Shown here: piece by piece, positions 13,413-48,033 of the stretch
Layout: every line of letters starts with the position of its first letter
Position numbering within the stretch: position 1 is the stretch's first letter
Assembly (NCBI GenBank): GCA_963707865.1
Contig: OY970175.1
Coordinates: forward strand, 16,748 to 80,747
Reading direction: 5' to 3'
Length of the DNA stretch: 64,000 bases
Source of the DNA: an uncultured bacterium
GTDB taxonomy: Bacteria; Patescibacteriota; Minisyncoccia; UBA6257; 2-01-FULL-56-20
Made by a program: the position numbers and the translations under genes
The notes under the pieces: model-generated
Seen by the model: the letters and a program-made list of their open reading frames with translations, nothing else
Told to the model about the DNA's origin: nothing
The model's database searches: none

Positions 13413-13447
13413 TAGCGTAGAACCCATCCTATATGTGAGATGGGTTC
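13413..13447. promoter_or_regulatory. conserved 16-nt motif TAGCGTAGAACCCATC plus palindrome (GAACCCATC-N10-GATGGGTTC), copy 1
   Basis: Begins 12 nt after the divergent start codon at 13401; same motif and geometry at 21670. Confidence 0.5.
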
Positions 13448-13473
13448 TAAAGAGATGATGGTACAATACAACT

Positions 13474-15504
13474 ATGCAAGGTACTGTTCCGCCGCCGCGC
13501 AAAGACGAGGAGGTTCGTCCCAGCGACCTCGTGAAAGTTATCAAACAGGAACCTAAGGACGAGGCGTTGGAGAAAAAAAGATCGTTGCCCCGCAAGCCTC
13601 GCTTCCCGAAAGGTATTGCATGGGGGATTGCGGGGCTTGTCGTGCTTTTCGTCGGCGGCTCAATTGCCTCTCTTTACCTCATCCGCGCCAAGGTGGCATC
13701 TTCATTCTCAACGAGCCTCGGGACGCTTCGCTTGGGTGTGGAAGACCTTCAAAATTTTGATCCCCAGTCTGCCGCGCAGAAATTTTCTTCTTTGCAGGAT
13801 CTTTCCTCGGGGGATCTTGGCACTGCCGTGAAAACATTCGGGTCTCTTTTGGGGGGAGGGGGCGGTGCCATCACGTCGCTCGTCGACATTTCCAAACAAC
13901 TCACGCTTTTTGCGCAAGAAGTGAGCGACGTGGCGTCAAGCTCGTACGGGTTTTTTACAAACGGACAGGGAGGGCCTTTCATTGCTGACCTCGGCCGTAT
14001 ACGCGACACGCTAGGTACGATTGATGCCGCAAGCGATCAACTAACGGGCACGGCATCGCTGTTCGGAGGGCTTTCTTCGTTCGGGGGCAACGATTTTTAT
14101 CTTTCGCTCAAAACGCAGATTAAGAGCACGAAGAATATGCTGGACGTTCTTTTGCCCTGGTTCTCCGATCCGCATCCCCATCACTTCCTTGTGCTTTTGG
14201 AAAATCCTTCGGAGATGCGTCCCGCGGGAGGATTTCTCGGAAGCTATGCGGATGTTACGATGACGAGCGGTACCATAACCGACGTCGCCGTGCATGATAT
14301 TGCGGACGTTGACGCGGCATTCAATCGCAACATCATCCCCCCGAAGCCGTTGCAGCTTGAGGTGACAAGATGGCGGCCGGCAGATGCGAACTGGTTTTTT
14401 GATTTTCCGACCTCTGCTTCAAAAACCATCGCTTTTTTTGAGGAATCGGCCCTTTACGCAAATGCTTCCACGACGTTTGACGGCGCCGTTGCGATTTCGC
14501 CGAAGGTAATCGGGGATCTCTTGGCCATCACGGGCCCGATTTCCGTAGGGAGGTCAACGACGACCTTCACGGTGGATAACTTCCTCGTTCAGATTCAAAA
14601 GATCGTCCAAAGCGGCCAGTCATTGTCCGCCACCTATCCCAAGCAGGTCATCGGCGATCTTTCAAAAGCGATTTTCGCGGCGCTTGCCTCTTCTACTACT
14701 ACAGACGGGCATGGCGCACTGCTTGCCATGGTGCTTAATTGGATAACCAATAAAGACGTGATGGTATATTTCAAAGATCCGGCGATGGAAGCCGTTGCGG
14801 ACGCGAACGGCGCTTCGGGCGCGGTCTATGCGTTGCCGCAGAAATTCAACGGCGATTACCTCGCAGTCGTGGATGCGAACGTAAACGGCGGGAAATCGGA
14901 CTTATATGTCTCAAGCACGATCGCCTATACCGCACAAATCAATCCGGACGGTACGATGACAGGGCACCTTGTCGTAGCGCGGAAGCACAATGGCAACAAA
15001 AGCCCGTATTCGTGGTATCGGGCGACGAATCAGGATTACGTGCAGATCTTCGTTCCAGAGGGCACGACGCTCGCGAATGTTTCCGGTACCGTTTTGAAAA
15101 AAATTACGCCGCCGATCAACTATGCAAAAAAGGGCTACATAACCGACCCCGCTGTTTCTACAATTGAGTCAACGGAGCAGACCCTCTTCGCGTATCCGGG
15201 CATCGCGTGGCACGAAGAGTCCGGGAAGCAGGTGTTTACGACGTGGTCTGTCGTGAAGGCAGGGGCTTCCACGCAATTCTCACTTGACTACACGCACCCC
15301 ATGTCCGTTCCTCCCGCGGAGGGCGTGACATACCAGTTTGTTTTTGAAAAACAGGCGGGCACGCATCGGTCATATGAATATGACATTGACGCGCCGCTTG
15401 GCTATGTCTTTGTTGAAAACGGCGGCCTCGCGACATATTTGTATCAGTCCGACGATCCGCCCGGGCGGCTCATCTTCAATTTGACGTTGCAGAAACTTCA
15501 GTAG
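13474..15504 (+). CDS. membrane-anchored extracytoplasmic protein (DUF4012-like)
   Basis: 676 aa; basic N-terminus, one TM helix, large Gly/Ser/Thr-rich ectodomain; divergent from the GT39 gene. Confidence 0.45.
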   Translation: MQGTVPPPRKDEEVRPSDLVKVIKQEPKDEALEKKRSLPRKPRFPKGIAWGIAGLVVLFVGGSIASLYLIRAKVASSFSTSLGTLRLGVEDLQNFDPQSAAQKFSSLQDLSSGDLGTAVKTFGSLLGGGGGAITSLVDISKQLTLFAQEVSDVASSSYGFFTNGQGGPFIADLGRIRDTLGTIDAASDQLTGTASLFGGLSSFGGNDFYLSLKTQIKSTKNMLDVLLPWFSDPHPHHFLVLLENPSEMRPAGGFLGSYADVTMTSGTITDVAVHDIADVDAAFNRNIIPPKPLQLEVTRWRPADANWFFDFPTSASKTIAFFEESALYANASTTFDGAVAISPKVIGDLLAITGPISVGRSTTTFTVDNFLVQIQKIVQSGQSLSATYPKQVIGDLSKAIFAALASSTTTDGHGALLAMVLNWITNKDVMVYFKDPAMEAVADANGASGAVYALPQKFNGDYLAVVDANVNGGKSDLYVSSTIAYTAQINPDGTMTGHLVVARKHNGNKSPYSWYRATNQDYVQIFVPEGTTLANVSGTVLKKITPPINYAKKGYITDPAVSTIESTEQTLFAYPGIAWHEESGKQVFTTWSVVKAGASTQFSLDYTHPMSVPPAEGVTYQFVFEKQAGTHRSYEYDIDAPLGYVFVENGGLATYLYQSDDPPGRLIFNLTLQKLQ

Positions 15505-15514
15505 GAAAACCGCG

Positions 15515-15595
15515 ATGGAGAATCTCACGCGCACAAGAAATTTCGTCATTATCGCCCATATTGATATCGCACGTTGCGACAACGCAACGGCATGA
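15515..15595 (+). other. remnant or duplicated 5' fragment of lepA (MENLTRTRNFVIIAHIDI...) with CGTTGCG-ACAA-CGCAACG hairpin
   Basis: 26-codon ORF whose codons 9-18 repeat the authentic lepA N-terminus (RNFVIIAHID) with synonymous changes; ends at the lepA start. Confidence 0.5.
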
Positions 15596-15599
15596 ATCT

Positions 15600-17429
15600 A
15601 TGAATAATATTCGAAACTTTGTTATCATCGCCCACATTGATTCGGGGAAGTCCACGCTTGCAGATCGTTTTTTGGAGATCACGGGAACGGTGCCCATGCG
15701 CTCTATGCGCGCGCAGTATTTGGACCGCCTGCCCTTGGAGCGCGAGCGGGGGATCACGATCAAGATGGCGCCGGTGCGGATGGCATATAGCGTGGACGGC
15801 AAGGAATATATTTTGAATCTGATCGACACGCCGGGACACTCGGATTTTTCGTATGAGGTTTCTCGCGCGCTCGCGGCGGTGGAGGGGGCGATACTTTTGA
15901 TTGACGGCACAAGAGGGATCCAGGCGCAGACGCTGTCCAATTTGCGCGCGGCGCAGAAAGCGGGGCTCACGATTATCCCCGCCGTGAACAAGATTGATCT
16001 CGCACTGCCGCAGATTGAAAGGGTGGTGGAATCGGTCGTCGAACTTTTGCACATGCCGAAGGAGAGCGTGCACCGAGTTTCCGCAAAGACCGGCGAAGGC
16101 GTGAGGGAATTATTGGACACGGTAGTGCGGGAAGTGCCGCCCCCTCGCGACGTTCCCGCGGATGCAAAATCCTCTCTGAACGCAAATCGCGGCGGTGGTG
16201 CCCATGACGCCGGAAAAGCTCTTATCTTTGATTCGCTCTATGATGATCACAAGGGCATCATTGCTTTCATACGCGTGTTCGGCGGCGAGTTCAAAACCGA
16301 GAACATGCGGTTTATGGCAACGGGCGTTGCGTTCAAACCGAAGGAAGTGGGCTATTTCACGCCGGACCCCGTGGCGTCGCCTGCGATCGTAAACGGCGAG
16401 ATCGGCTATCTTGCGACAGGACTCAAGGAACCGTCGCGCGTGAAAATCGGAGATACGGTGCTTGCGACCCACCACGGAGGAGGAGAAGTCGGCGCGGATG
16501 CGTTGCCCGGCTATCGGGAACCGGCACCAGTCGTATTCATTTCGTTCTACCCCGACCACGATACGAAGTTTGACGACCTCAAACGCGCGTTTGAGAAGCT
16601 GCGCTTGAATGACGCAGCGTTTTCCTTTGAGCCTGACGCGAACGAGGCGCTCGGCCGCGGCCTTAAAGTCGGTTTTCTTGGACAGCTTCACTTTGAGATC
16701 ACCGCGAGCCGCTTGGAACGGGAATATAACCTGCAATTTTTAACGAGTTTTCCTACGATTGCGTACCGCGTACAGGATCGCGGCGTGGTGCGCGTGATCA
16801 AGCAACCGCAGGATTTTCCGGACAAGCCGGAGAAAGTGTGGGAACCCTTTGTTCGTTTGGAAATCCTCACGCCGCAGAAATATTTAAGTGCGGTCGTCAA
16901 CTTGCAGACCGTATTTGATATTGAGATCGCGCAAGTAAAGAACATCGGCGAAAATCTTTTGATAGAAGCGAAGATGCCTTTGCGTGAGTTGATCCGCGAT
17001 TTTGATGACCGGTTAAAATCGTCATCGCAAGGATATGCATCGTTCACCTACGAGCTTGCCGGGGAGCAGGAAGCAGAGGTGGAAAAATTGGAAATTTTAG
17101 TTGTGGACGAAGTGGTGCCCGCGCTCACGCGCATCGTTCCCAAAAAAGATCTTGAGCGCGAGGGGAGGCAGACCGTGGAGCGGCTGAAGGAACTTTTGCC
17201 GAAGGAGCAGTTTGCGCAGGCGATCCAAGCAAAGGCACTTGGCCGCATCATCGCGCGCGAAACGATCCCGGCAATGAAAAAGTTGTTGGGCAATTTCGGG
17301 AAGACCGGCGGCGACCGCACGCGGAAGATGAAGCTATGGAAAAAGCAGAAACGCGGGAAGGAGAAACTCGCCGGCATGGCCCGGGTGGAGCTCACGCCGG
17401 AGGTGTTTCGCGAGATACTGAAAAAGTAG
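15600..17429 (+). CDS. lepA: elongation factor 4 (LepA)
   Basis: G1 motif AHIDSGKST, DTPGHSDF, C-terminal LepA domain; start trimmed to MNNIRNF. Confidence 0.9.
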   Translation: MNNIRNFVIIAHIDSGKSTLADRFLEITGTVPMRSMRAQYLDRLPLERERGITIKMAPVRMAYSVDGKEYILNLIDTPGHSDFSYEVSRALAAVEGAILLIDGTRGIQAQTLSNLRAAQKAGLTIIPAVNKIDLALPQIERVVESVVELLHMPKESVHRVSAKTGEGVRELLDTVVREVPPPRDVPADAKSSLNANRGGGAHDAGKALIFDSLYDDHKGIIAFIRVFGGEFKTENMRFMATGVAFKPKEVGYFTPDPVASPAIVNGEIGYLATGLKEPSRVKIGDTVLATHHGGGEVGADALPGYREPAPVVFISFYPDHDTKFDDLKRAFEKLRLNDAAFSFEPDANEALGRGLKVGFLGQLHFEITASRLEREYNLQFLTSFPTIAYRVQDRGVVRVIKQPQDFPDKPEKVWEPFVRLEILTPQKYLSAVVNLQTVFDIEIAQVKNIGENLLIEAKMPLRELIRDFDDRLKSSSQGYASFTYELAGEQEAEVEKLEILVVDEVVPALTRIVPKKDLEREGRQTVERLKELLPKEQFAQAIQAKALGRIIARETIPAMKKLLGNFGKTGGDRTRKMKLWKKQKRGKEKLAGMARVELTPEVFREILKK

Positions 17430-17483
17430 CACAAGACGGCACGCCGTCTTGTGCGTTTCTTTTTGAGAATCTAAACTGAAGCT

Positions 17484-17774
17484 ATGAAGATTGTAGGAGC
17501 AGCTATTCTCTTTGTTATTCTTGTTTTGGTGGGAGCGCGAGTGTATTCGTTTTTCGCGCAGGAAAAGCAATTAAGCGCGGACCTTGCGGACATTCAGGCA
17601 CGGCTTACAAAGGCGCAATACGACGAGGTAAGTTTGCAATCGGAGGTGCAATACCTCGCAAATCCGCTCAACTTGGAGAAAGAGCTCCGCGCGCGGTTCA
17701 ACTACAAAAAACCCGGCGAGACGATGATTATTATCGTACCCGCGCAAAGTTCCACGGCGACGACCACAGATTAA
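17484..17774 (+). CDS. FtsB/DivIC-like septum formation initiator
   Basis: N-terminal TM helix, coiled coil, C-terminal NYKKPGETMIIIV matching the FtsB/DivIC family. Confidence 0.55.
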   Translation: MKIVGAAILFVILVLVGARVYSFFAQEKQLSADLADIQARLTKAQYDEVSLQSEVQYLANPLNLEKELRARFNYKKPGETMIIIVPAQSSTATTTD

Positions 17775-17800
17775 AAAAAGATTAAAGAACCTTTGACGAA

Positions 17801-18169
17801 ATGATTGCGACGGCTACCATAAATTCCATGGGGCACATGACACTTGAAAAGCTGGCGCTCATGATGGGAGCCGAATTCAAAAATATTGATCAGCGTTTTG
17901 AGGGGGTGTACGAGGAAATCGGCCGCTTGGGCCGCCGCATGGAGGCAGGTTTTCAAACCATGCGGGCGGAGATGAGCGATATAAGAAGCGATATTTTCGC
18001 ACTGAAGGAAGATATGAAAGAAGTTAAGGAGGATATTGGGATGATGAAGAAGGATATCGAGACGATGAAGGAGGATACAGACGTTCTCAAAAAAGAATCG
18101 CAGATTCACCATGCGGAACTTGCCGGTCTCGATGGCCGGGTGGTGCGTCTTGAAAAAGGAGTTATATGA
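17801..18169 (+). CDS. coiled-coil hypothetical protein
   Basis: 122 aa, heptad-rich EDMKEVKEDIGMMKKDIETMKED; 4-nt overlap with pcm start. Confidence 0.35.
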   Translation: MIATATINSMGHMTLEKLALMMGAEFKNIDQRFEGVYEEIGRLGRRMEAGFQTMRAEMSDIRSDIFALKEDMKEVKEDIGMMKKDIETMKEDTDVLKKESQIHHAELAGLDGRVVRLEKGVI

Positions 18170-18807
18170 AGGTTGATGCCGAAGAACTTATACGCGATTT
18201 GATCGCGGAAGGATATTTGAAAACGTCCACGCTCGTGAGCGCGTTCCGGGCGATCGACCGCAAGGATTTCGTGTTGCCGGAATACGCCGGGGAGGCGTAC
18301 GGGAATTATCCGTTGCCGATCGGGTTCGGACAGACGATTTCCCAGCCGCTTACGGTCGCATTCATGCTGGAGCTCCTCGCTCCGCGCGCAGGAGAAAAAA
18401 TTTTGGACATCGGCTCGGGCTCTGGGTGGCAAACCGCCCTTTTGGCGCATGTGGTGAGCGGGGGAGGAAATGCGCATGGCCGCGTGACGGCGATGGAGCG
18501 GATTTCCGAACTCAAAGCGATGACCGAGCGCAACGTGGAGAAATACGGTTTCGTAACGCGCGGCATCGTGCGGGCGGTACTTGGCGACGGTTCAAAAGGA
18601 TATGCCGCGGGCGCGCCGTACGACAAGATCATTGCCGCGGCGGCGGGGGGAGAAATTCCTGCTGCGTGGAGAGAACAACTCCGGCCGGGCGGGAGGATCG
18701 TAGCGCCAGTAAGGGAGAGTGTCGTTGCTATGGATAAAACCAAAAAAGGAGATTTCAAAATACGGGAATATCACGGTTTCAGCTTTGTGCCGCTCGTGGA
18801 AGATTAA
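18166..18807 (+). CDS. pcm: protein-L-isoaspartate O-methyltransferase
   Basis: GQTISQP substrate motif and LDIGSGSGWQTA SAM-binding motif. Confidence 0.85.
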   Translation: MKVDAEELIRDLIAEGYLKTSTLVSAFRAIDRKDFVLPEYAGEAYGNYPLPIGFGQTISQPLTVAFMLELLAPRAGEKILDIGSGSGWQTALLAHVVSGGGNAHGRVTAMERISELKAMTERNVEKYGFVTRGIVRAVLGDGSKGYAAGAPYDKIIAAAAGGEIPAAWREQLRPGGRIVAPVRESVVAMDKTKKGDFKIREYHGFSFVPLVED

Positions 18808-18858
18808 TTTGCGCTGACCGTTGAACCCCGCCGAGCGCGGTGGTACAATGCCTGTGTC

Positions 18859-18929
18859 GCGGGTGTAGTACAGTGGCAGTACGGTAGCTTCCCAAGCTAT
18901 AGACGAGGGTTCGATTCCCTTCACCCGCT
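18859..18929 (+). tRNA. tRNA-Gly (anticodon CCC)
   Basis: Hand-folded cloverleaf: acceptor GCGGGTG/CACCCGC, D arm GTAC-AGTGGCA-GTAC, anticodon loop TTCCCAA, T arm GAGGG-TTCGATT-CCCTT; CCA not encoded. Confidence 0.8.
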
Positions 18930-18991
18930 CAATAAGAATGGAAAGGTGTTACCATTAAAGTAAGCTGCGTGATATCCCGAGGAAACAAACA

Positions 18992-20080: not shown

Positions 20081-20151
20081 AAAACGGTGAGTTCCGTTTT
20101 GGGTTCAAGCGAAGAGCGTTGCGGATAGAGTAGAAAATATTCCGCGATAGA

Positions 20152-20961
20152 CTATTCTTTTTTCTTGAACAAGCTCAATAAAAAGAGCGCGGCGGCCGTG
20201 ACGACGATCGTGGGGCCTTGTTCCAGCGCGTAGTGCGCGGAGAGGTAAAACCCGACGAGCATTGCGGCGATGGAAAGCGCTATGGAGGTTATGAGGAACA
20301 TGCCGAGCGAATGGGTGAACTGGCGCGCGGCGGAGGCGGGAATGATGATGAGGGAACCCACAAGCAATGCGCCGAGGAAGCGCAACGAAACAAGGATAGC
20401 GAGGCCAAAGACGAGCAAAAACCAAAGGTTCACGGTGTTCACGTTGATACCGGCGGAGGCAGCGAGTTCTGGGGAAAAGAGGGCAATGATCAATTTGTTG
20501 CGCAGCACCCAGAGCGCTGCAATGACGATTATACTCACCGCCATCCCGAAGATGAATCCGCCGGCAGAGAGATTTCCAAATCCGCCGAAGAGTGCATCAA
20601 CAAGATCTTCGGTGGAATGAATAAGAAGTGCGCCCAGTGCCACGGAACTTGCAAAGATGACGCCGATCGCAGCCTCGGCGGAAAGTTCGGTGGATTTTTG
20701 AAGATGCCAAATAAGAAGAATACCGATGAGGAGAGTGAGCCCGCCGCCCGCGAGGGGATTGATCTTCCAGACGATGGCGAGGCCCAACCCAGGGATTGCG
20801 ATGTGCGACATTACGTCGCCTGCGAGCACCGTCCGTTTCATCAGTGCGAAGGCACCGACGAGGCCTGCGGCTGCGGCGGCAAAAATAGCGAGCGTGATGG
20901 AATAAATATCAGTGAGGGTCATGGAGATGGTGGAAGTGGTGGAAATATTTGTGCGGTCCAT
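20152..20961 (-). CDS. metal (Zn/Mn) ABC transporter permease, ABC-3 family
   Basis: Eight hydrophobic segments; ZnuB/MntB/TroCD-like; a start at MTLTDIYS (20922) would remove most of the 53-nt overlap with the ATPase gene. Confidence 0.8.
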   Translation of the reverse strand: MDRTNISTTSTISMTLTDIYSITLAIFAAAAAGLVGAFALMKRTVLAGDVMSHIAIPGLGLAIVWKINPLAGGGLTLLIGILLIWHLQKSTELSAEAAIGVIFASSVALGALLIHSTEDLVDALFGGFGNLSAGGFIFGMAVSIIVIAALWVLRNKLIIALFSPELAASAGINVNTVNLWFLLVFGLAILVSLRFLGALLVGSLIIIPASAARQFTHSLGMFLITSIALSIAAMLVGFYLSAHYALEQGPTIVVTAAALFLLSLFKKKE

Positions 20962-21658
20962 AAAGTTTTTCCAATACGTCTTTGGTGAGAGCTTCGTCGG
21001 GTGGGCCGAAGCAGAGCTCAGACGTGTGGAGACAAAGCACTTTCGTAGCGTACTGGTACACGACGTTAAGGTCGTGCGAGACGAGGATGGTTGTCATGTC
21101 GTATTGGTCCTGAAGGCGGTGGACGAGTTCATAAACCTGCTCTTCGCCGGACTCGTCAATGCTCGCAGTCGGTTCGTCAAGCAGCAGCACGCTCGGCTTG
21201 CCCAGCCGCGCTTCGTCGTGCGAAGTGGTGCTCGGCAAGCCAAGGAGTGCGAATGCAATAAGCGCGCGCTGGAACTGTCCGCCCGAAAGGTGCCCCACGG
21301 GCGTTTCAAGTATTTTTTTTGTGAGACCGACGGCATCCGCGACGGCGCTCGCTTCGGCTTTCGCGAGACGGAGCGTCGCCGATTTAGCCGCGAGAAGATT
21401 GTGGAAGTTGATGGGGAGGTGGCGGTCGGCGTCTATTTTTTGCGGCACATAGCCGATCCGCGTGCCGGGGGCCCACGCAACCGTGCCGCGGTAGGGAATC
21501 ATGCCGAGGAGCGCGCGCAAAAGGACGCTCTTACCCGCGCCATTGGGACCGATAACCGCAAGCGCATCCCCCTTGTCAAGTGTAAAATTGATACTCTGCA
21601 ACGCGGTTCTTCCGCCCAATACTACGTTCAGATCGGAAACGGTAAGCGCATCTGCCAT
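20909..21658 (-). CDS. metal ABC transporter ATP-binding protein with His-rich C-terminal tail
   Basis: Walker A GPNGAGKS, signature LSGGQFQRA, Walker B LLLDEP; tail HKYFHHFHHLHDPH. Confidence 0.85.
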   Translation of the reverse strand: MADALTVSDLNVVLGGRTALQSINFTLDKGDALAVIGPNGAGKSVLLRALLGMIPYRGTVAWAPGTRIGYVPQKIDADRHLPINFHNLLAAKSATLRLAKAEASAVADAVGLTKKILETPVGHLSGGQFQRALIAFALLGLPSTTSHDEARLGKPSVLLLDEPTASIDESGEEQVYELVHRLQDQYDMTTILVSHDLNVVYQYATKVLCLHTSELCFGPPDEALTKDVLEKLYGPHKYFHHFHHLHDPH

Positions 21659-21669
21659 TGTGAATATTG

Positions 21670-21732
21670 TAGCGTAGAACCCATCTTAAAAATAGGGCAT
21701 AAGAGCCATGCGGCCTATTTTTAAGATGGGTT
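21670..21732. promoter_or_regulatory. conserved 16-nt motif TAGCGTAGAACCCATC plus 20-bp-arm palindrome (GAACCCATCTTAAAAATAGG-N16-CCTATTTTTAAGATGGGTTC), copy 2
   Basis: Begins 12 nt after the divergent start codon at 21658; between the ABC ATPase gene and the histidine kinase gene. Confidence 0.5.
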
Positions 21733-21780
21733 CCGGCGGCGGATGGGAAAGGGAGGAGACCAGAATGATAGAATGAAGGT

Positions 21781-23571
21781 ATGCAGAAGCCGTCTAAAAG
21801 AAAACTTCGGAATCGGATCTTTCTCGTGATTCTCGTCGGGCTTGTCCCTATCGCGGTTGCGGTGGGGCTTGGTATCTACACCGTGAACAGCTCACACCGC
21901 GAGGATGTGGCACGGCTTGAATCGGCGGTGCTTACAGAGAAGGCGCAGGAAGTAGAGACCTATGTGAACGAAAACATCTTAAGCCACCCCCGGATCGTAT
22001 CGCCCCAAGGGACAAGCATTGCACAATCAACTTCGGCGCAGAAATTTGCCCTCAGCCAAACAATGAATGTGCTCACCTTTCTTAATGTGGAATCTTTTGT
22101 CAATTTGAGCGGAGAAGAATTGGTGCGCCTTGATCGCGCGTATCCCGACGGCTATCCCGCGGATGCCTTGCGCGACATGAGCGCCACGCCGGCGTTTCAG
22201 ATCGCCCGTGCGGGCAACTATTATATCGGTCCCATTTCTTACATTTCTTCCACGCCCTCGGTCACCTTTTCGTCTCCCGTGGAGGATGATGCAAAAAACG
22301 TGATAGGGGTGATCGTGGGCGAGGCGAATCTGGCGGAGCTCCAAGCGATTGTTACGGAAGCGAAGATCGGCACCACCGGGTACCTGTATCTTGTGGATGG
22401 ACAGGGGAACACGATTGGCGGTGGAGGGCCGATGAAGGGGACTACGGGACAAACGGCTACGGTGAATGGGGTTAACCTGTCGACGGTACAGGCGGCACTC
22501 GCTGGGGAAGATCTTCTTACCGCCGACACGCAAGAGACCTATAAAAACATCGTAGGGGAAACGGTGGTCGCTGCGGAAAAATATATTCCGGAATTTGGTT
22601 GGGGACTCGTCGTGGAATGGCCGACAAGCGAGGCGAACGCCGTGATCAATACGCTTTTCTTGCGCAACGCTATCACATTTGCCATTGTGTTGCTCATCGC
22701 GTTCGCCGCGTCGCTCTTCCTCGCCGCATATGTGGTGCGCCCGGTGCGGAAGTTGCAGGAGGGCGTGGCGCGGGTGGCGCAGGGAAAGTTTGACGAGGGG
22801 GTTTACATCGCAACTGGCGACGAATTGGAAGCCCTCGGCGACTCGTTCAATAACATGGTGCAGGGGTTGAAGCAGTTGGAACAGCTGAAAGACGAGTTCG
22901 TCTTTATCGCGGCGCACGAGCTGCGGACCCCCGTGGCTGCGATGAAGGGATATCTTTCTCTTGTTCTTGACGGTACGACGGGCGCCATCACTGATGGGAC
23001 AAGAGCGTACGTGGAGAAGGTAATCGCGTCGGATAACCGTCTTGTCCAACTGGTGAACGACCTTCTTGAGGTCGCCCGCTCAGAGGCGGGACGGCTTACG
23101 ATTAAGGTGTCGCCGATTGACATGGCGCCGCTCGTCTGTGCAGTGCTTGACGAACTCAAAGCGCTCGCCGACGAGAAGTCGGTAAAAATGGTCTACGAAC
23201 CGTCTGTAGATTTGCCGAAGGTAGTGGGCGACGCGGATCACGTGAAGGAAGTTATGGTCAATCTTGTGGGCAATGCGATCAAGTATATGGGTGGCGCGGG
23301 GACGGTGACCATTTTGCACGAAGTGAAAGACGGCGCGCTCCTGACGCACGTCGCAGATACTGGGATCGGCATTGCAAAGGAAGCACAGGAAAAATTGTTT
23401 CAAAAATTCTACCGCGTGCAGACGGAGAAGACGCGCGACATCACGGGCACCGGCCTTGGCCTTTTTATCGTGCGGGAGATTATGGAAAAGATGGGTGGAA
23501 AAATCTTGGTTGAGTCCGAGGAAGGAAAAGGGTCCATGTTCAGCATTAGCCTCCCCCTCGCAAAAACGTAA
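21781..23571 (+). CDS. sensor histidine kinase (TM - extracytoplasmic Cache-like domain - TM - HAMP - HisKA - HATPase_c)
   Basis: H-box FIAAHELRTPVAAMKGY; N, G1 and G2 boxes (NLVGNAIKY, DTGIGI, GTGLGL); no response regulator gene in window. Confidence 0.8.
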   Translation: MQKPSKRKLRNRIFLVILVGLVPIAVAVGLGIYTVNSSHREDVARLESAVLTEKAQEVETYVNENILSHPRIVSPQGTSIAQSTSAQKFALSQTMNVLTFLNVESFVNLSGEELVRLDRAYPDGYPADALRDMSATPAFQIARAGNYYIGPISYISSTPSVTFSSPVEDDAKNVIGVIVGEANLAELQAIVTEAKIGTTGYLYLVDGQGNTIGGGGPMKGTTGQTATVNGVNLSTVQAALAGEDLLTADTQETYKNIVGETVVAAEKYIPEFGWGLVVEWPTSEANAVINTLFLRNAITFAIVLLIAFAASLFLAAYVVRPVRKLQEGVARVAQGKFDEGVYIATGDELEALGDSFNNMVQGLKQLEQLKDEFVFIAAHELRTPVAAMKGYLSLVLDGTTGAITDGTRAYVEKVIASDNRLVQLVNDLLEVARSEAGRLTIKVSPIDMAPLVCAVLDELKALADEKSVKMVYEPSVDLPKVVGDADHVKEVMVNLVGNAIKYMGGAGTVTILHEVKDGALLTHVADTGIGIAKEAQEKLFQKFYRVQTEKTRDITGTGLGLFIVREIMEKMGGKILVESEEGKGSMFSISLPLAKT

Positions 23572-29360: not shown

Positions 29361-29547
29361 TTTATCAGATTCGCCTCCCGGCAAGTTGAGAAGCCTCCCG
29401 CGCCTTATTCCGGCGTTTCACCCTAAATAAAATCCGTGTTGAATGTGAGAAATTTTCCTTCGCTGGAATTCTCCGTTTTCGCTCGAAAATCCGTCGCGAT
29501 ATGCAATTGCCAATTTTTGAGATAGGTTCTAAGCTCATAGCATAGCG

Positions 29548-33167: not shown

Positions 33168-33191
33168 TTTTTAATGCGCGGTGAGTATAAT
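33168..33191 (+). promoter_or_regulatory. promoter-like box TTTTTTAATG-N9-TATAAT (copy C) upstream of hicB
   Basis: ATTTTTTAATGCGCGGTGAGTATAATGCTT; a GGAG ribosome-binding site lies 8 nt before the hicB ATG. Confidence 0.5.
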
Positions 33192-33243
33192 GCTTTGCAA
33201 AGGTCGCAAAGCAGGCGTTGTTATTTTTATGGAGATGCATACA

Positions 33244-33480
33244 ATGGAATCTGTGAAGACAAAATATAAATTCCCGTACATCATTGAGGAGGACGAGGAT
33301 GGATTTTATGCTACCTGTCCGGCCCTCAAGGGGTGTTCCACGCAGGGCGATACTTGCGAGGAGGCATTGGCCAACATCAAAGACGCAATTTGGTTATGCC
33401 TTAAGGTCATGGAAGATGATGGCGAAAAGATTTCGGAACCGAAGGCATCCGACTTGCCTACAGTAGAAGTCACTATATAG
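33244..33480 (+). CDS. hicB: HicB-family antitoxin (UPF0150)
   Basis: YIIEEDEDGFYATCPALKGCSTQGDTCEEALANIKDAI matches the HicB RNase-H-like fold consensus; 79 aa from the GGAG-preceded ATG. Confidence 0.6.
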   Translation: MESVKTKYKFPYIIEEDEDGFYATCPALKGCSTQGDTCEEALANIKDAIWLCLKVMEDDGEKISEPKASDLPTVEVTI

Positions 33481-36761: not shown

Positions 36762-36812
36762 CGCGACACGGCCTGTCGGAAATGTGGTATACTTTTTATA
36801 ACTTGTGTCCAA

Positions 36813-38792: not shown

Positions 38793-38823
38793 ACGGAGCA
38801 TAGTACAAACGTGCACGCTATCC

Positions 38824-38937: not shown

Positions 38938-38953
38938 TCCCTGCATTTTCCCT

Positions 38954-39337: not shown

Positions 39338-39342
39338 CATCC

Positions 39343-39798: not shown

Positions 39799-39834
39799 TC
39801 ATTAGAAATTGGACATTAGAAATTAGAAATTTTC

Positions 39835-40452: not shown

Positions 40453-40457
40453 AAACT

Positions 40458-41240: not shown

Positions 41241-41252
41241 CCGACGGATCCC

Positions 41253-41606: not shown

Positions 41607-41617
41607 TAGACACCCCT

Positions 41618-41965
41618 ATGGATTATCACATTGACGCAAAAAACAAAATACTGGGTCGCGTGGCATCGGAGATTGCGCTTATTTTGCAGGGCAAGAAAAG
41701 CGCTTCGTACGCGCGGAACCGCGTTTCGGGCGACAAAGTGTACGTGAAGAACTATAAAGATATCGTCGTAACCGGCGAGAAGCGCACGCAAAAGATATAT
41801 CGCCACCACACGGGTTACGTGGGACATCTGAAGGAGCTCACGTTTGAACAGAAATTCGCGAAGGATCCGAAGTCGGTTCTCCGGCGCGCGGTCCGCAAAA
41901 TGCTCCCGAGGAACTTTTTGAACCAGAAAAGATTGAACAATTTGACGTTCGTGGATTCCGAATAA
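41618..41965 (+). CDS. rplM: 50S ribosomal protein L13
   Basis: IDAKNKILGRVASEIALILQGK. Confidence 0.9.
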   Translation: MDYHIDAKNKILGRVASEIALILQGKKSASYARNRVSGDKVYVKNYKDIVVTGEKRTQKIYRHHTGYVGHLKELTFEQKFAKDPKSVLRRAVRKMLPRNFLNQKRLNNLTFVDSE

Positions 41966-42519
41966 TGGATCTTAAACCCATGCCTAGCGAAAAAGAAACC
42001 AAACATACTGCATCGCACGCCGCGCCGCGCGCGCATCGGGCGCCTGCGGCGGCGGCGCGTGTGATTGCTCCGCACGCGGCACACGCCGTTGCTGCCACCG
42101 CGCATAGCCCCCGCCCCACACATGCCGCTCCAGAAGAGCGCTACAGCGAGGCCATTGGCCGCCGCAAGACCGCTGTTGCGCGCGTGCGGATCATGGCTGG
42201 CAAAGGAAAAGTGACCGTGAACGGCCAAGAGCCAAAACAGTATTTCGTGTTGCCGCGGCTTCTTGCGATCGCGCTCGCCCCGCTTCGCGAACTGAAGCTT
42301 GATGACGTTGACGTGAGCGTGAAAATCGGGGGCGGCGGCATAAGCGCCCAGGCCGAAGCCGTGCGTCACGGCATCTCCCGCGCGATCGTTGTCCGGACAG
42401 CCGAATGGAAGCCGCGCCTTCGCGCGTTGGGCTACCTCACCCGCGACTCCCGCATGGTGGAGCGCAAGAAATACGGTTTGAAGAAAGCGCGCAGAGCTCC
42501 GCAGTGGGCGAAGCGCTAG
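41965..42519 (+). CDS. rpsI: 30S ribosomal protein S9 with ~55-aa His/Ala/Pro-rich N-terminal extension
   Basis: Conserved core from GRRKTAVARVRI to RMVERKKYGLKKARRAPQWAKR; extension HAAPRAHRAPAAAARVIAPHAAHAV precedes it. Confidence 0.85.
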   Translation: MDLKPMPSEKETKHTASHAAPRAHRAPAAAARVIAPHAAHAVAATAHSPRPTHAAPEERYSEAIGRRKTAVARVRIMAGKGKVTVNGQEPKQYFVLPRLLAIALAPLRELKLDDVDVSVKIGGGGISAQAEAVRHGISRAIVVRTAEWKPRLRALGYLTRDSRMVERKKYGLKKARRAPQWAKR

Positions 42520-42722
42520 GGGAGCACCGCAGAGCGGTAGACGTACGGAGAGTCGGACTCCGCGAACCCCGATTACCAAGTCGGGATTGGCACCGTGCTA
42601 CGCCCACCGCGCGAACGATTGTATCAGACAGAGATTATTTTGTTTAAAAGAAACTTGACTAACGCATTGGACCTCCTATACGGTCTGTATTACCAGGTCG
42701 GGATAGGCTCGTGTTCGAACCC

Positions 42723-42752
42723 TGCAAAAGACCCAGCGATGGGTCTTTTGCT
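42723..42752 (+). terminator. rho-independent terminator after the ribosomal protein cluster
   Basis: AAAGACCCA-GCGA-TGGGTCTTT hairpin followed by a T-rich tail. Confidence 0.5.
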
Positions 42753-42849
42753 ATACTGAAGTAACAATGATGGATATTGAAAAAGAAATTGCGGCCATCA
42801 AATGTTAGGCCTTGGCTTTTTAGCCGGATAAACCTATAATCTTTGCATT

Positions 42850-43737
42850 GTGGAAAAATTAGAAAACGAAAGCGGCTATGAAAAGATTGGCCCTACGGCG
42901 TGGGGCGTAGCGCATTTCCGAACATTTTCGGATATTAAATATGCCGAGGAGATCTTTGAAGAACTTGATAGTGTAGTGAAACCAGCCGATCCGGTTCAAT
43001 TGGAATATATGGGAAGCATAAGGCGGTCCGAACTCGCTCTCGCGCCGCAATTTGAAGCCCGTTACAAACTTATCAACTGGCTGCTGAAGGAGAACAAGAC
43101 AAACCAAATTTTGGAACTCGCTACGGGCCTTGCGGGACGGGGGCTCGCGACGGCAGAAGCAGATCCGTCGTTGCAATACGTGGAGGTTGATCTTCCGGCA
43201 ATGGCGGCGCACAAGAGGGAGATGCTCCAAAATCTGTTTGCGAAGGGCAAGGCGAAACCGCAAAGCAATCTCCACGTGGAGGATGGGAACGCCCTGGATG
43301 AGGGCTCCCTTTTTGCCGCCGCTCGTTATTTCAAAGACGAGCCCATCTCGGTGGTGAATGAGGGGTTGCTGCGATATTTGACCCCCGACGAGAAAAAGAT
43401 CGTGGCGGAGAATGTCCGCGCCCTGCTTCGGAAATTCGGCGGCGCATGGATTACTTCCGACATCAGCACAAAAAGGGTATTGGCGTATGAGGAGGAGAGA
43501 ACGGACAATCACGCGAGGGTGAAGGCGATGTCGGGAATTGACGTTAAAACAAACAGTTTTGAGGATCAAGACGCAGCGCAGAAGTTCTTTGAAGACCTTG
43601 GGTTTAGCGTTGAACGGCACAGTTTCCTTGAGGTCGCGGGCGAATTAGTTTCGCCTAAAAAACTAGGACTTTCGGATCAAGAAGTGGAAAACATGATTCA
43701 ACATGCCACGGTTTTTGTGATGAGGCTACGGCAGTAA
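42850..43737 (+). CDS. class I SAM-dependent O-methyltransferase (LCM/TcmP-like family)
   Basis: YEKIGPTAWGVAHFRT N-terminal signature and LELATGLAGRGL SAM-binding motif; AT-richer than flanks. Confidence 0.5.
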   Translation: MEKLENESGYEKIGPTAWGVAHFRTFSDIKYAEEIFEELDSVVKPADPVQLEYMGSIRRSELALAPQFEARYKLINWLLKENKTNQILELATGLAGRGLATAEADPSLQYVEVDLPAMAAHKREMLQNLFAKGKAKPQSNLHVEDGNALDEGSLFAAARYFKDEPISVVNEGLLRYLTPDEKKIVAENVRALLRKFGGAWITSDISTKRVLAYEEERTDNHARVKAMSGIDVKTNSFEDQDAAQKFFEDLGFSVERHSFLEVAGELVSPKKLGLSDQEVENMIQHATVFVMRLRQ

Positions 43738-43777
43738 CCATATGTTCAAAATGTGAATAGGGGTATATAATGGTCAT

Positions 43778-44542
43778 ATGGAGTGGCTCACCTACATAGT
43801 TATCGTCATCGTCATCATTCTCCTCGCGGGGATCAAGGTGATAAAGGAATATCAGCGGGCGGTTGTATTCCGCTTGGGCCGCCTCGTGGGCGCGCGCGGC
43901 CCTGGCCTGATCTACGTCCTCCCGATTTTTGAGAAGATGGTGCGCGTCGGCCTTCGCACTGTCACCATGAACATCCCGTCGCAGAAGATCATCACGAAGG
44001 ACAACGTTTCCATTGACATCGCGGCGGTGGCGTACTACCACGTGGTGGACGCTCAAAAATCCGTGGTCGCGATTGAAAATGTCCACGACGCGGTGAACCA
44101 GATCAGCCAAACGACGGTCAGGAATGTCGTGGGCCAATTTATGCTCGACCAATTTTTATCACAGACGGTTGATATCAATGAAAAGATAAAGAACGTGATC
44201 GACGTCCATACGGAGCCGTGGGGCATCCAGGTAACCGCGGTTGAGATCAAGGATGTTATCCTGCCTGACAACATGCAGCGGGCGATGGCGAAGGAGGCGG
44301 AGGCCGAACGCGAGCGGCGGGCAAAGATCGTTGCCGCACAAGGCGAATTTCAAGCGGCTGAAAAATTAGGGCAAGCAGCCGAGATCATTGCCGCGCATCC
44401 CGTCGCCCTCCAGCTTCGTACGCTCCAAACGATGGCGGAAATCGCCACCGAAAAGAACTCCACGATCATTTTCCCGGCACAGTTCATGACGACGGTCAAA
44501 GAAGCTCTTGAGACGCTTCAGCAGGATAAGAAGAATAAGTGA
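43778..44542 (+). CDS. SPFH/band-7 (stomatin-like) membrane protein
   Basis: N-terminal TM helix, SPFH domain (VVFRLGRLVGARGPGL), C-terminal coiled coil (KEAEAERERRAK). Confidence 0.8.
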   Translation: MEWLTYIVIVIVIILLAGIKVIKEYQRAVVFRLGRLVGARGPGLIYVLPIFEKMVRVGLRTVTMNIPSQKIITKDNVSIDIAAVAYYHVVDAQKSVVAIENVHDAVNQISQTTVRNVVGQFMLDQFLSQTVDINEKIKNVIDVHTEPWGIQVTAVEIKDVILPDNMQRAMAKEAEAERERRAKIVAAQGEFQAAEKLGQAAEIIAAHPVALQLRTLQTMAEIATEKNSTIIFPAQFMTTVKEALETLQQDKKNK

Positions 44543-44575
44543 ACAGATTAAGAAGGGTAGTGGTACTGCCGCGCG

Positions 44576-45097
44576 CTACGAGTGCTTCTCCAGGCTAAGG
44601 TTTGAAAGTGCCAAGAGCAGGGCGGGCATCATAAGGTCCTTCCTTGTGAGCGTTTTCCCGGAAAAGTATATGACGGGGTCTTCCTCTCCCGCGAGGCTCT
44701 GGGTGAGGGCGTCAATTTTGATGTGACCATCCTGTATTTCTTTGATCATCCACAGCGGTACGCGTATGCCGGGGGTGAAGCTTTCCGCGGTCTTGCCTTC
44801 TTTGGTCTTCACGGCGGCGCAGATCACGTAATACCATTCGTTCGCGTTGAAGATAAAAACAAGCGAATTTTCTATTCCCACGCCCACGTCTATACCTTCG
44901 CGGTTGACCGCTTCCGCTGCGCAGGACCTTGCCCTTTTGAAAAGCTCTTCAAACCCGAATGTCTGCGAGGGAAGGGATGGACGGAAGGTGTTGTCGGCGG
45001 CGACGGTCGCTTCAATGCCGAGCCGCTTCGCGGCCTCCTCCACCGCCGCTTTCTTGAGATCGAAATAGCGCTTGGAAGTGTAGAAACCAATAGTCAT
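44576..45097 (-). CDS. non-canonical purine NTP phosphatase (DUF84 / YjjX-like inosine/xanthosine triphosphatase)
   Basis: 173 aa; overall pattern of the DUF84 family (GVGIENSL...WYYVICAAV); moderate. Confidence 0.45.
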   Translation of the reverse strand: MTIGFYTSKRYFDLKKAAVEEAAKRLGIEATVAADNTFRPSLPSQTFGFEELFKRARSCAAEAVNREGIDVGVGIENSLVFIFNANEWYYVICAAVKTKEGKTAESFTPGIRVPLWMIKEIQDGHIKIDALTQSLAGEEDPVIYFSGKTLTRKDLMMPALLLALSNLSLEKHS

Positions 45098-45140
45098 CCT
45101 TACCAGTATAGCACTTTGAAAATTGTTATAATGAGAACAT

Positions 45141-45587
45141 ATGCAATTCCTTACGAAGCTGGAACGGGCGATACGCCGGAGGTTAAAGCGCCATCCGTTG
45201 CTCTATGCATTCGTGGCCGGAGTCGGCGTCGTTCTCTTTTGGCGCGGCGTGTGGCATTTTGCCGACTTCCTCGCGCTCAACTTCATATCGGCGAACGACA
45301 CGACGACGAGCATTGACTGGGCGTCGGGTCTTGACAGCGCTTTGTCGCTCGTTGTCGGCGGACTCCTTCTGCTCTCCACGGGACTTTTTGTGTCCGAGCT
45401 TTTGAGCGGGGAGGTTTTGATCACGCGTACGGAGAAGGAAGAGGAAATTACGGGAAAAACCGAAAAGGGCGTGGAAAGGGAATCGGCGGAATTGCCCCAC
45501 ATTGAGGAGGAGATCCATCACATTGCGAAGGAGATAGAGGATATTGAGAAAGATCTCCACGCGAGAGGCGGGGAAAGAATGGAATGA
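45141..45587 (+). CDS. hypothetical membrane protein with acidic coiled-coil C-terminus
   Basis: Two predicted TM helices; no homology recognised. Confidence 0.3.
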   Translation: MQFLTKLERAIRRRLKRHPLLYAFVAGVGVVLFWRGVWHFADFLALNFISANDTTTSIDWASGLDSALSLVVGGLLLLSTGLFVSELLSGEVLITRTEKEEEITGKTEKGVERESAELPHIEEEIHHIAKEIEDIEKDLHARGGERME

Positions 45588-45647
45588 AGGGAACGATCGT
45601 CGCGAGCGGGAAAGTTGTGCTGCGTCCGATCGCGCTCGGCGATGCGC

Positions 45648-47936
45648 CTACGCCTTCACGGTTATTTCCGCCGGAACATCTTCAATTTCACAAATGCCGC
45701 CTACGCATGCGAGCTCCTTCTTCACATCGGTCGTATCTTCCCGTTCGTAAAGAAGGATCTGCGAGAAGTCAATTTCGGGCATTTTGGCGAGCACCTCTTC
45801 ATAACGTTCTTTTGTGATTTCTTCGTAAGGCGCCAAGAGATATGCGTGGTCTTCGCGCGGGAGGAAGGAAAGTCCGCCGATCATATCCCAGTTCTTGTAG
45901 ACCCAATCCGCAACGTCCACCCACTCGTTCTCGCCGACGGAGACCGTGATGGAAGGATTGTGTTCGGTGTAATTCGCTTTTACCTTCTTCCAGTGTTCAA
46001 GTTGGTCAAGCGCGGTAAGATCGTTCTTCGTAAGCCCACCCTCGGGAGCCCTCACTGGGAATTCCACTACGTATGTATTTGCGGAGGAAAGCGACTGACC
46101 AACTTCGGGGGAGTAAGTGACCTTCTGGTCCTTCATCATTTGGAATAGCGCGTCGGTCGCGGCGATGCGTACGCGGCGGATGTAATACTTCGCGTGGCGC
46201 GGGTGGAGGCCGGAGGACGAATCAACCGTCTGCGAGAGATTGCCTGACGGTTTTACGCATGTGATCGCCATTGAAGCACTGATGCCGAAGCGGTCCGCAT
46301 ACTCCGCGTTAATCTTCACCGCGTGGTCACGGAGCTTGCGAAGGACATTTTCGTCGCGGACCGCGGCGCAATCCCACTGGCCGGTGATGGAAACGCCCAA
46401 AAGCCGCTCGCGGTCGCAATTTTGCTTCCACTCTTTAGAGAGATAGGGGAAATTGGTGAGTGCGGATTGGTAGGTGCCAAGGATCGTCGCGAGCCGCATC
46501 TTCCTTGTGAGTGTTGCTTCGGTATCCTCCGCGCGGGCCACGACCTCGGAGAGATTACAGAACTCCTTCGGTTGGAGGATGATCTCACCGCAGGGGTTCG
46601 TGCCCAGGCGGTTGATCTCTTCCTTCAGGAATTTCTTGCGGCGTTCGGGGAGTTGGTAGACAAGGCCTCCGCGGTTGAAGATGCCGCGTTCGCCCGTGCC
46701 GCTCTTCGCGAGCGAGATCCATTCCTCAAGGAACTGCGTGGAATTGGGCTTTTCCGTGTATACCGCGGAATTGTTCGCCATGGAACGCTGGGGTTCCGTC
46801 ATCCAGAACTGGCCATTCTTTGCATTCCGCATTTCTTGGTCATCAAGGTCGGAAAGCGAAATTGTGGCGCTCCGGCGTACGCCGCCCGCGACGACGATCT
46901 CGCCGATCTTGCAGCAGATGTCGTGCACGTCAATATTTGAAAGACGACGCCCTTGTTTCGCGAGGATCTTCCTCCGTGCGAAGGAGAGGAGTGCGCGGAG
47001 CGGTTCCGGTCCGGAGCTTTTTCCACCCATCGTGTAAAGGCGCGCGCCTGCGGGACGCAATTGCGAAAAATCAAAATCAATGTCCTTTCCGTCGAACCAT
47101 GTTTTCAAACCGATTGTAAGAGCGTCGCACCATCCCTCCTTGCTGTCCGCAATCACGTGCGCATCCAGTTTTTTCCCGGTCTGCCGTTTGATCTGGGGGA
47201 GCTTCTGTACGTTCTGGCTTTCCACGGAGAAGCCGACGCCCGTGCCGCACATGGAGATGTACATCATCTCGGCGAAGTCCTCCGGCTTCTGTGGCGCGAG
47301 GTATGAACAGTTAAACGCGGCGACATTCGTAGAGCGCGCCGCTTTTCCGGCAAATTGCAAAAGCCGCATGGAGGGCATCGCTTCCTGTTTTAAAATTCCC
47401 TCCCGCACTTCTGCGTACTCGGCGTCGGTAAGTTTCTCGCCGAGATTTTCTTTCATGAAATCCATGTAGCGGTCAACCGTTTCTATCCACGTTTCGCGCC
47501 GGCCCTCTTCGGGGATCCATTTTGAGTACGTCCGGTAGTACACGAATTCGGCAAGCTGGTTCCTGAAATATTTTTTGCTTTCTTCGGCGAGTTGCCGCAC
47601 ACGCTCCGGGATCTCGCGCTTCATCTCGCGGATCTGCGCACGGTCGGCACGGTACAAAATGTATGCCTTCGCCGTTTTCGCGTAGTCCATGAGGATAAGC
47701 TGGGTCTCTGTGATATCCTGGACCTCTTCTATCGTGGGGATATGGTCCTTTGGGAACTTTTTTTCAAGCGTAGCTACCACTTGCTCCGAAACTTTCTCCG
47801 CATCCTCCTTTGATTTGGCCTCTCCGGTCACGTTCATCGCCTTCGCAACGGCGTTCGTGATCTTCGCTTGATCGAACGGCACTATGCGCCCATCCCTTTT
47901 TCTTACTTCTGTGAAATGATGCTTCCCAAAAATCAT
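45648..47936 (-). CDS. nrdJ: class II (adenosylcobalamin-dependent) ribonucleotide reductase with N-terminal ATP-cone
   Basis: ATP-cone VRKRDGRIVPFDQAKITNAV; RNR barrel motifs (FNCSY, radical-site region CGEIILQP); 762 aa. Confidence 0.85.
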   Translation of the reverse strand: MIFGKHHFTEVRKRDGRIVPFDQAKITNAVAKAMNVTGEAKSKEDAEKVSEQVVATLEKKFPKDHIPTIEEVQDITETQLILMDYAKTAKAYILYRADRAQIREMKREIPERVRQLAEESKKYFRNQLAEFVYYRTYSKWIPEEGRRETWIETVDRYMDFMKENLGEKLTDAEYAEVREGILKQEAMPSMRLLQFAGKAARSTNVAAFNCSYLAPQKPEDFAEMMYISMCGTGVGFSVESQNVQKLPQIKRQTGKKLDAHVIADSKEGWCDALTIGLKTWFDGKDIDFDFSQLRPAGARLYTMGGKSSGPEPLRALLSFARRKILAKQGRRLSNIDVHDICCKIGEIVVAGGVRRSATISLSDLDDQEMRNAKNGQFWMTEPQRSMANNSAVYTEKPNSTQFLEEWISLAKSGTGERGIFNRGGLVYQLPERRKKFLKEEINRLGTNPCGEIILQPKEFCNLSEVVARAEDTEATLTRKMRLATILGTYQSALTNFPYLSKEWKQNCDRERLLGVSITGQWDCAAVRDENVLRKLRDHAVKINAEYADRFGISASMAITCVKPSGNLSQTVDSSSGLHPRHAKYYIRRVRIAATDALFQMMKDQKVTYSPEVGQSLSSANTYVVEFPVRAPEGGLTKNDLTALDQLEHWKKVKANYTEHNPSITVSVGENEWVDVADWVYKNWDMIGGLSFLPREDHAYLLAPYEEITKERYEEVLAKMPEIDFSQILLYEREDTTDVKKELACVGGICEIEDVPAEITVKA

Positions 47937-48033
47937 TTATGAAAAATTAATTGATATTTAATGTCGACGTAGAACCATTCTACCACCATGCCCTGTCAAA
48001 GGGGAGGTGTGGATAGCAATTCTTTCATCAACT

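Follow-up and report, generated by a model that had tools for sequence, protein, structure and literature searches.

Remnants of miniature transposable elements probably explain a repeated promoter-proximal palindrome in a Minisyncoccia genome

Main

A 64,000-nucleotide (nt) stretch of DNA from an uncultured bacterium of the Minisyncoccia (contig OY970175.1, positions 16,748 to 80,747; hereafter the window) carries an identical 16-nt motif, each time beside a palindrome, near the start codons of two minus-strand genes. A preliminary description of the stretch had proposed that one dimeric regulator acts through this motif on genes for glycosylation, metal uptake and ribonucleotide reduction or, as a fallback, that a small family of palindromic elements is dispersed there. 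Our analysis makes it very probable that the motif consists of remnants of miniature inverted-repeat transposable elements (MITEs) with ends of the IS5 family (IS427-like), a TA scar and the −10 box of the host gene, and that it is not the site of a regulator.

The loci compared with the window, designated by L-numbers (L001, L055, L192 and so on), are Patescibacteria relatives and metagenome contigs. The relatives of the glycosyltransferase gene at the first site are all metagenome-assembled Patescibacteria (Parcubacteria, Minisyncoccia, Paceibacterota, Liptonbacteria); the closest share 90% amino-acid identity, and one is a complete chromosome of 887,956 bp. At the nucleotide level, the window is 87.9% identical to L002 and 86.0% to L001, L001 and L002 are 86.4% identical to each other, and L003 stands at about 74%.

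Results

The 16-mer is a composite sequence

The 16-mer TAGCGTAGAACCCATC occurs exactly at 13413–13428 and 21670–21685 on the plus strand, and both copies start 12 nt past the A of a minus-strand ATG (13401 and 21658, respectively). With up to three mismatches allowed, the window contains four matches, against 0.31 expected, and none of 100 shuffles reached four. One three-mismatch match, GATAGGTTCTAAGCTC at 29521–29536, lies at an equal distance, 12 nt, from the ATG of dnaG (29548). The other, at 33298, is a chance match inside a HicB-like open reading frame (ORF). This antitoxin ORF (33181–33480) agrees with the motif at 13 of 16 positions, and a HicB_lk_antitox gene lies at the corresponding place in relatives.

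The palindrome at the first location (site 1) has 11-nt arms (13418–13428 and 13439–13449), and that at the second (site 2) has 20-nt arms that are 100% complementary (21677–21696 and 21714–21733). At each site, identical half-sites GATGGGTTC face the two genes of a divergent pair. The positions of the exact 16-mers, the arm lengths of 11 and 20 bp and the divergent arrangement with the DUF4012 and histidine kinase genes, all reported in the preliminary description, were reproduced here, the gene calls by Pfam (Table 1).

Read on the gene strand, both sites have the form GATGGGTTCTACGCTA(T/C)AAT-N7-ATG. Three parts make up the 16-mer: 9 nt of a terminal inverted repeat (GATGGGTTC), the TA of a target-site duplication and the CGCTA of the host promoter, which comprises the three bases just before the −10 box and the first letters of its TAYAAT hexamer. 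The sequence is identical at two genes because the element tip, the TA scar and the host-promoter CGCTA coincide.

The palindromes belong to a TA-flanked repeat family

A repeat consensus, GAACCCRTCTYAMAWRTAGG, was derived from the window copies, the L001 copy and a 280-bp copy in L055. The terminal inverted repeat is 20 nt long, GAACCCATCT(C/T)A(A/C)A(A/T)(A/G)TAGG, and is shared at both ends by the copies, except for the third window copy (copy 3), whose distal repeat has been lost. A metagenome search found the 20-nt repeat GAACCCATCTYAMAWRTAGG in at least 120 contigs from sediments, soils and groundwater, mostly as elements of 133–305 bp flanked by TA...TA. Partner repeat and flanks lay outside the search pattern, and the counts of partners, flanks and distances that follow are among the matches listed. 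Most matches have an inverted partner 133–305 bp away, including 33 nearly identical 142-bp copies. The flanks are TA on both sides in 52 of 87 copies, with most of the others one base off, and the third outward flank base is A or G in 84%, which indicates a Y-TA-R target with a 2-bp duplication. TA is likewise present on both sides of window copy 1 and of the L055 copy.

Copy sizes vary widely. The window copies measure 28, 57 and about 150 bp and those of L001 and L055 161 and 280 bp, respectively; metagenome copies range from 36 to 305 bp. A BLAST comparison of 96 extracted MITEs with the window gave significant matches only at 13410–13450, 21660–21740 and 29479–29530, so that the 64-kb stretch holds three copies (Table 1). 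The repeat of copy 2 matches that of the L055 copy at 18 of 20 positions, and copy 3 aligns over about 150 nt with a 161-bp element of L159 that belongs to the same subfamily as the L001 copy at site 1.

Mini-palindromes of 36–53 bp that consist of the two inverted repeats only and are flanked by TA were also seen in the unrelated contigs L122, L172, L078, L145 and L170; collapse to a repeat-only remnant seems to be a usual fate of this family. In L055, the 280-bp copy (4779–5058) and its TA together make 282 bp, or 94 codons, placed in frame inside the 5′ end of an ORF that runs through the element without a stop. Without the insert, the N terminus of the product would read MKIL-CVGAAGSGMG, which resembles a Rossmann GxGxxG motif.

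Short dispersed palindromes could also be REP/REPIN-like elements mobilized by a RAYT (Y1) transposase, or palindrome-associated elements of the IS200/IS605 type. At both sites the stem in GCGTAGAACCCATC comes right after a GTAG, as such elements would have it, and at first view site 2 displays no obvious duplication. However, in this GTAG the TA represents the duplicated target, and the G ahead of it comes from the host and is found in empty sites as well. Moreover, the elements have TA/TA flanks and 20-nt terminal inverted repeats that match an insertion sequence (IS) of the DDE type, and they lie upstream of genes rather than at 3′ ends. No Y1 transposase came to light, although no search was aimed at one. 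We therefore consider this reading barely credible.

Empty sites and length decay

Site 2 and the dnaG site show presence/absence polymorphism at orthologous positions. In L001 and L002, site 2 lacks the palindrome and reads ...CCGCCGCCGC-TA-CGCTACAAT-ACTCACA-ATG, and L003 is likewise without an element; the window reads ...CCGCCGCCG-[GAACCCATCTTAAAAATAGG...CCTATTTTTAAGATGGGTTC]-TA-CGCTACAAT-ATTCACA-ATG. Because the empty sites in L001 and L002 already hold TACGCTACAAT in front of ACTCACA-ATG (TACGCTACAAT-N7-ATG), only GATGGGTTC is new at this site in the window. The dnaG site is empty in L192, L193, L194 and L195, in which TAAGCTCATAGCATAGCG-ATG is kept. Upstream of dnaG, L192, L193 and L194 read terminator-ggca-TA-AGCTCATAGCATAGCG-ATG, and at that TA the window carries an insert of about 150 bp. 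Given the identity of 86–88% among the window, L001 and L002, and of about 74% for L003, one insertion per site in the window lineage is the parsimonious account of site 2 and the dnaG site.

Site 1 records the decay of a single insertion. The element measures 161 bp in L001 (9822–9982), about 60 bp in L002 (9071–9130) and 28 bp in the window, with the ends kept and the interior lost. The L001 copy forms a long hairpin with arms of about 48 nt (DNA fold energy −60 kcal/mol, z-score −15). In L003 and L045, site 1 has no element, and L045 reads TACGGTATAAT there.

The deletion that took the distal end of the dnaG copy also removed the 3′ half and the T-run of an intrinsic terminator belonging to the upstream CAP-domain gene (window 29361–29400, compared with L192 3773–3831 and L194 9942–10000). 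Read-through into dnaG-rpoD may consequently differ from that in relatives.

These comparisons bear directly on the proposal that the palindromes are operators through which a dimeric transcription factor jointly controls the glycosyltransferase, the metal ABC transporter and nrdJ. In its favour, the palindromes span positions from about −48 to −17 in two −10-only promoters, a region in which a repressor would work, and each gene of a divergent pair is faced by an identical half-site GATGGGTTC. However, the spacing of the arms changes from 10 nt (site 1) to 39 nt (site 2) and, in L001, to about 120 nt, and the arms are extended by sequence that is non-homologous yet complementary. Genomes that are 86–88% identical keep the orthologous promoters at site 2 and dnaG but have no element there, and it is also missing from the glycosyltransferase (GT39) promoters of L003 and L045. 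The same arms, moreover, bound hundreds of TA-bounded elements in unrelated contigs, and the nrdJ site proves to be a −10 box whose partner arm is not conserved. We regard an operator as highly improbable. With variable spacing, arms that are the repeats of a mobile element and no orthologous conservation, a single regulator for the three functions is not supported, and the regulon idea fails on the very comparison that the preliminary description had chosen beforehand, that of orthologous intergenic regions. Its fallback, the dispersed palindromic family, was correct, as the MITE repeats, TA flanks and empty sites attest.

The ends match an IS5-family insertion sequence

When a 142-bp copy was compared by BLAST with plasmids, it matched the ends of a TA-flanked element of about 866 bp on Leptospira weilii plasmids. 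That element starts tta-GAACCCATCTCAAAAA and ends TTTTTGAGATGGGTTC-tag, and the first 16 nt of its repeat are identical to the MITE repeat. It encodes a protein annotated as 'IS5 family transposase', with DUF4096 and DDE_Tnp_1 domains when translation is followed through an A-run frameshift. IS427-group elements are 832–865 bp long, have 2-bp direct repeats and carry two ORFs joined by frameshifting (PMC3281130). The Leptospira element has the traits of the IS5/IS427 group, namely a length of about 866 bp, TA flanks, a frameshift and a DDE domain. The parent type of the MITEs therefore appears to resemble the IS427 group of the IS5 family, an assignment by size, duplication length and frameshift only. 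An IS630/Tc1-mariner parent, the first guess from the TA duplication, was dropped when the plasmid comparison yielded an IS5-family element instead.

Ten metagenome loci with a solo repeat showed, by eye and without a domain search, only housekeeping-type ORFs and no autonomous copy. A scan of viral contigs returned three unrelated-looking single matches with no partner repeat. We also considered a structured RNA at the element; at gathering score, Rfam found only two tRNAs and an S-adenosylmethionine (SAM) riboswitch in the window and nothing in four MITE-bearing loci, and this candidate was rejected.

These features suggest a model in which a DDE transposase supplied in trans would bind both repeats and excise or copy the element. 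Insertion at a TA, preferably in a Y-TA-R context, would duplicate the TA. The long hairpin-forming interior would then be lost by deletion, and the result would be either mini-palindromes (28 and 57 bp) or a copy in which one end has decayed.

Leaderless promoters and the fixed offset

A consensus scanner found neither a −35/−10 pair nor a canonical terminator at the three element sites, and the promoters there are therefore taken to be −10-only and leaderless. Such promoters appear to be common. TATAAT-like hexamers peak 6, 7 and 8 nt before the ATG (15, 8 and 5 cases, respectively; 28 of 141 ORFs), with about one per position elsewhere, in a count of the ATG-initiated ORFs of the window and its closest relatives that is slightly inflated by overlap of some loci. 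Upstream of glycosyltransferase orthologues that lack GATGGGTTC (L003, L004, L009, L016 and others), GCTATAAT-N6/7-ATG is kept. The preliminary description was right to see a −10 box placed for leaderless initiation, but this placement is genome-wide and not particular to the motif.

All three window copies have the same arrangement of repeat end, TA, 16 nt and ATG. At site 2 and at dnaG, the TA at −18/−17 pre-exists in the empty relatives. The empty site 2 offers a single TA between the two −10 boxes, and this is the one that was used; the dnaG intergenic region offers four TAs, of which one was used. The fixed offset can be explained by the promoters, because many genes are leaderless with a −10 box 6–8 nt before the ATG and have no −35 consensus. 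An insertion nearer the gene would destroy the −10 region, and there would be no −35 element to lose in these promoters. The TA at −18/−17 would then be the closest target at which the core promoter stays whole, and insertions there would be tolerated, or spared by selection.

Several observations weigh against the reading of the motif as MITE remnants beside host promoters. Copy 2 has TA on one side only and is 3 nt short of a clean TA duplication at its other junction (21734), where the second TA copy and 1 nt more are missing. All three copies lie exactly 18 nt from the ATG, a regularity greater than can be proved to be chance. The CGC between TA and −10 box is identical at sites 1 and 2, yet C is rare (6%) at that flank position. 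Finally, no homologue of the Leptospira-type transposase was detected by tblastn in the window, in the 193 fetched loci (1.83 Mb; the positive control worked) or inside the element copies.

Target preference was considered as the cause of the shared CGCTA and set aside, since the flanks show Y-TA-R only. Because C makes up only 6% of third flank positions, the shared CGCTA is attributed to promoter sequence and coincidence, and both the identical CGC and the three-of-three offset are provisionally treated as promoter consensus plus coincidence.

The regular offset could have a more specific cause. Integration could be directed to the upstream edge of core promoters, at −18/−17 of −10-only promoters, for example by DNA distortion that bound RNA polymerase brings about or by duplex destabilization. 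Alternatively, the MITE ends could have been exapted, with the repeat at −19 now aiding the promoter or its regulation and serving as a module that links unrelated genes. In Escherichia coli, IS5 is known to activate genes when it inserts upstream of promoters. The shared arrangement of all three window copies fits either idea, and at site 1 the element has been retained in three diverged genomes with its interior decayed and its ends intact, as exaptation would have it. However, the empty-site relatives keep the same promoters, so that the element is not needed, and the TTGAGA of the repeat is only 12 nt from the −10 box, too close for a −35 element. Nor do metagenome copies keep a fixed distance to start codons: 156 ends are spread over 2–141 nt from the next outward ORF start, with one at 18 among the matches listed. 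The sample in the window is, moreover, three copies. Directed integration or co-option thus seems unlikely to us, and tolerance of MITE insertions at the nearest harmless TA is the reading that we carry forward.

The nrdJ site is unrelated to the family

The palindrome that the preliminary description had reported upstream of nrdJ, CGTAGAACCATTCTACC, is present, about 2 nt from where it had been placed, but its relation to the motif did not hold. The 8-mer GTAGAACC occurs exactly four times in the window, compared with about two expected for any 8-mer in 128 kb, and with one mismatch it occurs 32 times against 28.7 expected, a near-chance frequency. The GTAGAA arm belongs to a conserved extended −10 element (TGgTAGAAT) that precedes a conserved leader of about 45 nt. 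In relatives the −10 region reads TGGTACAAT (L187), TGTTAAAAT (L190) and TGGTAGAAT (L191). Aligned upstream regions are TTGACAgggcatggTGgTAGAATggttctacgtcgacattaaatat...ATG in the window, TGgTACAATtggtttacgtcgaaattaaatat in L187, TGtTAAAATgttgttacgtcgagattaaac in L190 and TGgTAGAATggttttacgtccaaattaaatat in L191. The second arm, TTCTAC, is a variant of the TTTTAC of the conserved leader that is specific to the window, with TTTAC, TTGTTAC or TTTTAC in its place in relatives, so that the arms are not conserved in orthologous promoters. On these alignments, the nrdJ palindrome does not belong to the MITE family.

At window 47937–47985 (minus strand), the extended −10 box and a leader segment, TTACGTCGAaATTAAATAT, are conserved in four lineages. 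They could mark a candidate regulatory site, perhaps one for NrdR, or form an RNA element.

Other features of the window and its relatives

A second family of hairpins, about 130–190 nt long, occurs at 10129–10301 and 49636–49825 of the window and at about 11950–12150 of L002, 8100–8260 of L187 and 8150–8300 of L190, and at 7973–8117 of L192. Its core reads ...ACGAAAAT-NNN-GCCACCC-loop-GGGNNCCCGGC-NNN-ATTTTCT..., and the outer stems vary between loci and remain complementary. RNAalifold, applied to six copies, predicted 38 pairs, 17 of them with compensatory double changes. The hairpin at 10129 is absent from the orthologous site of L001 and present in L002; that at 49636 keeps its orthologous position in L187 and L190. 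This family had no Rfam match, and two E-value searches (10080–10350 and 49580–49870) returned only noise. The candidates are a further hairpin MITE and a multi-copy structured RNA.

The SAM riboswitch of the window (RF00162, 53.5 bits) lies at 57764–57881 on the plus strand, upstream of an ORF at 58000–58998.

Table 1. Coordinates of MITE copies, predicted promoters and neighbouring genes in the window
Feature	Position	Strand	Details
MITE remnant copy 1, 28 bp	13420–13447		One full 20-nt inverted repeat (GAACCCATCTCACATATAGG, minus-strand reading) and the last 8 nt of the other; interior deleted
TA target-site duplication of copy 1, left copy	13418–13419		Right copy at 13448–13449
MITE remnant copy 2, 57 bp	21677–21733		Two perfect 20-nt inverted repeats GAACCCATCTTAAAAATAGG, 17-nt loop
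TA used by copy 2 insertion	21675–21676		Pre-exists in empty sites of relatives (CCGCCGCCGC-TA-CGCTACAAT)
MITE copy 3, about 150 bp, 161-bp subfamily	29380–29529		Proximal repeat CCAATTTTTGAGATAGGTTC (29510–29529) 18/20 intact; distal repeat deleted
TA used by copy 3 insertion	29530–29531		16 nt before dnaG ATG (29548); pre-exists in relatives (ggcaTAAGCTCATAGCATAGCG-ATG)
Predicted native leaderless promoter of PMT-type glycosyltransferase gene	13402–13417	−	CGC, TATAAT (13409–13414), 7 nt, ATG (13401); kept in orthologues without the element
Predicted −10 box (TACAAT) of divergent DUF4012 gene	13462–13467	+	6 nt before ATG at 13474
Predicted native leaderless promoter of ABC ATPase gene	21659–21674	−	CGC, TACAAT (21666–21671), 7 nt, ATG (21658); unchanged in L001 and L002
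nrdJ 'palindrome', outside the element family	47968–47984	−	TGG-TAGAAT (+ strand 47985–47977), conserved extended −10
PMT/PMT_2 glycosyltransferase	11422–13401	−	Pfam
DUF4012 protein	13474–15504	+	Pfam
ABC ATPase, followed by ABC-3 permease	20909–21658	−	Pfam
Cache/HAMP/HisKA histidine kinase	21781–23571	+	Pfam

Discussion

The analysis does away with a false regulon: the motif establishes no link between glycosylation, metal uptake and ribonucleotide reduction. An operator can be mimicked by the tip of a transposon, its TA scar and a promoter consensus in combination, which is a lesson for motif hunting. In place of the regulon, the comparisons indicate that a Parcubacteria/Minisyncoccia genome of about 0.9 Mb gained at least two MITE insertions since its split from relatives of about 88% identity. 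Insertion sequences and MITEs from widely differing bacteria and habitats have this terminal repeat in common, which is relevant to the persistence of mobile DNA in streamlined, probably symbiotic genomes. The genome-wide placement of a −10 box 6–8 nt before the ATG, for leaderless initiation, is a useful annotation fact for the clade.

Several known systems resemble the elements in part. The operator of a dimeric repressor would look like an inverted repeat with its centre near −32 in a −10-only promoter, but variable spacing, the absence of orthologous conservation and membership of a mobile family set the present palindromes apart. With REP, BIME and REPIN sequences they share short dispersed palindromes, a GTAG beside the stem and inverted doublets; unlike those, their GTAG is made of host sequence and duplication, their position is upstream of genes rather than downstream, and they end in true terminal inverted repeats bounded by TA. 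In Neisseria, the Correia elements (CREE) are likewise small, form hairpins from inverted repeats and have a TA duplication; they often lie beside genes and can affect promoters. Their repeat sequence and host are unrelated to those described here, and their ends carry promoter elements of their own and an IHF site, whereas the −10 box in the window is that of the host gene and is present in empty sites.

The closest likeness is to MITEs derived from the IS427 group. The elements have 20-nt repeats that share 16 nt with the Leptospira IS, a TA duplication and a Y-TA-R target, and they are small and non-coding, occur in many copies across metagenome contigs and show insertion polymorphism between close relatives. 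They differ in that no parent IS was found in the window or the fetched relatives, in that the window copies of 28 and 57 bp are extreme deletion derivatives and in their host, a Patescibacteria genome of about 0.9 Mb. We found no description of MITEs in Patescibacteria in the literature examined. MITEs themselves are well known, and the present family, in Patescibacteria, adds a new member.

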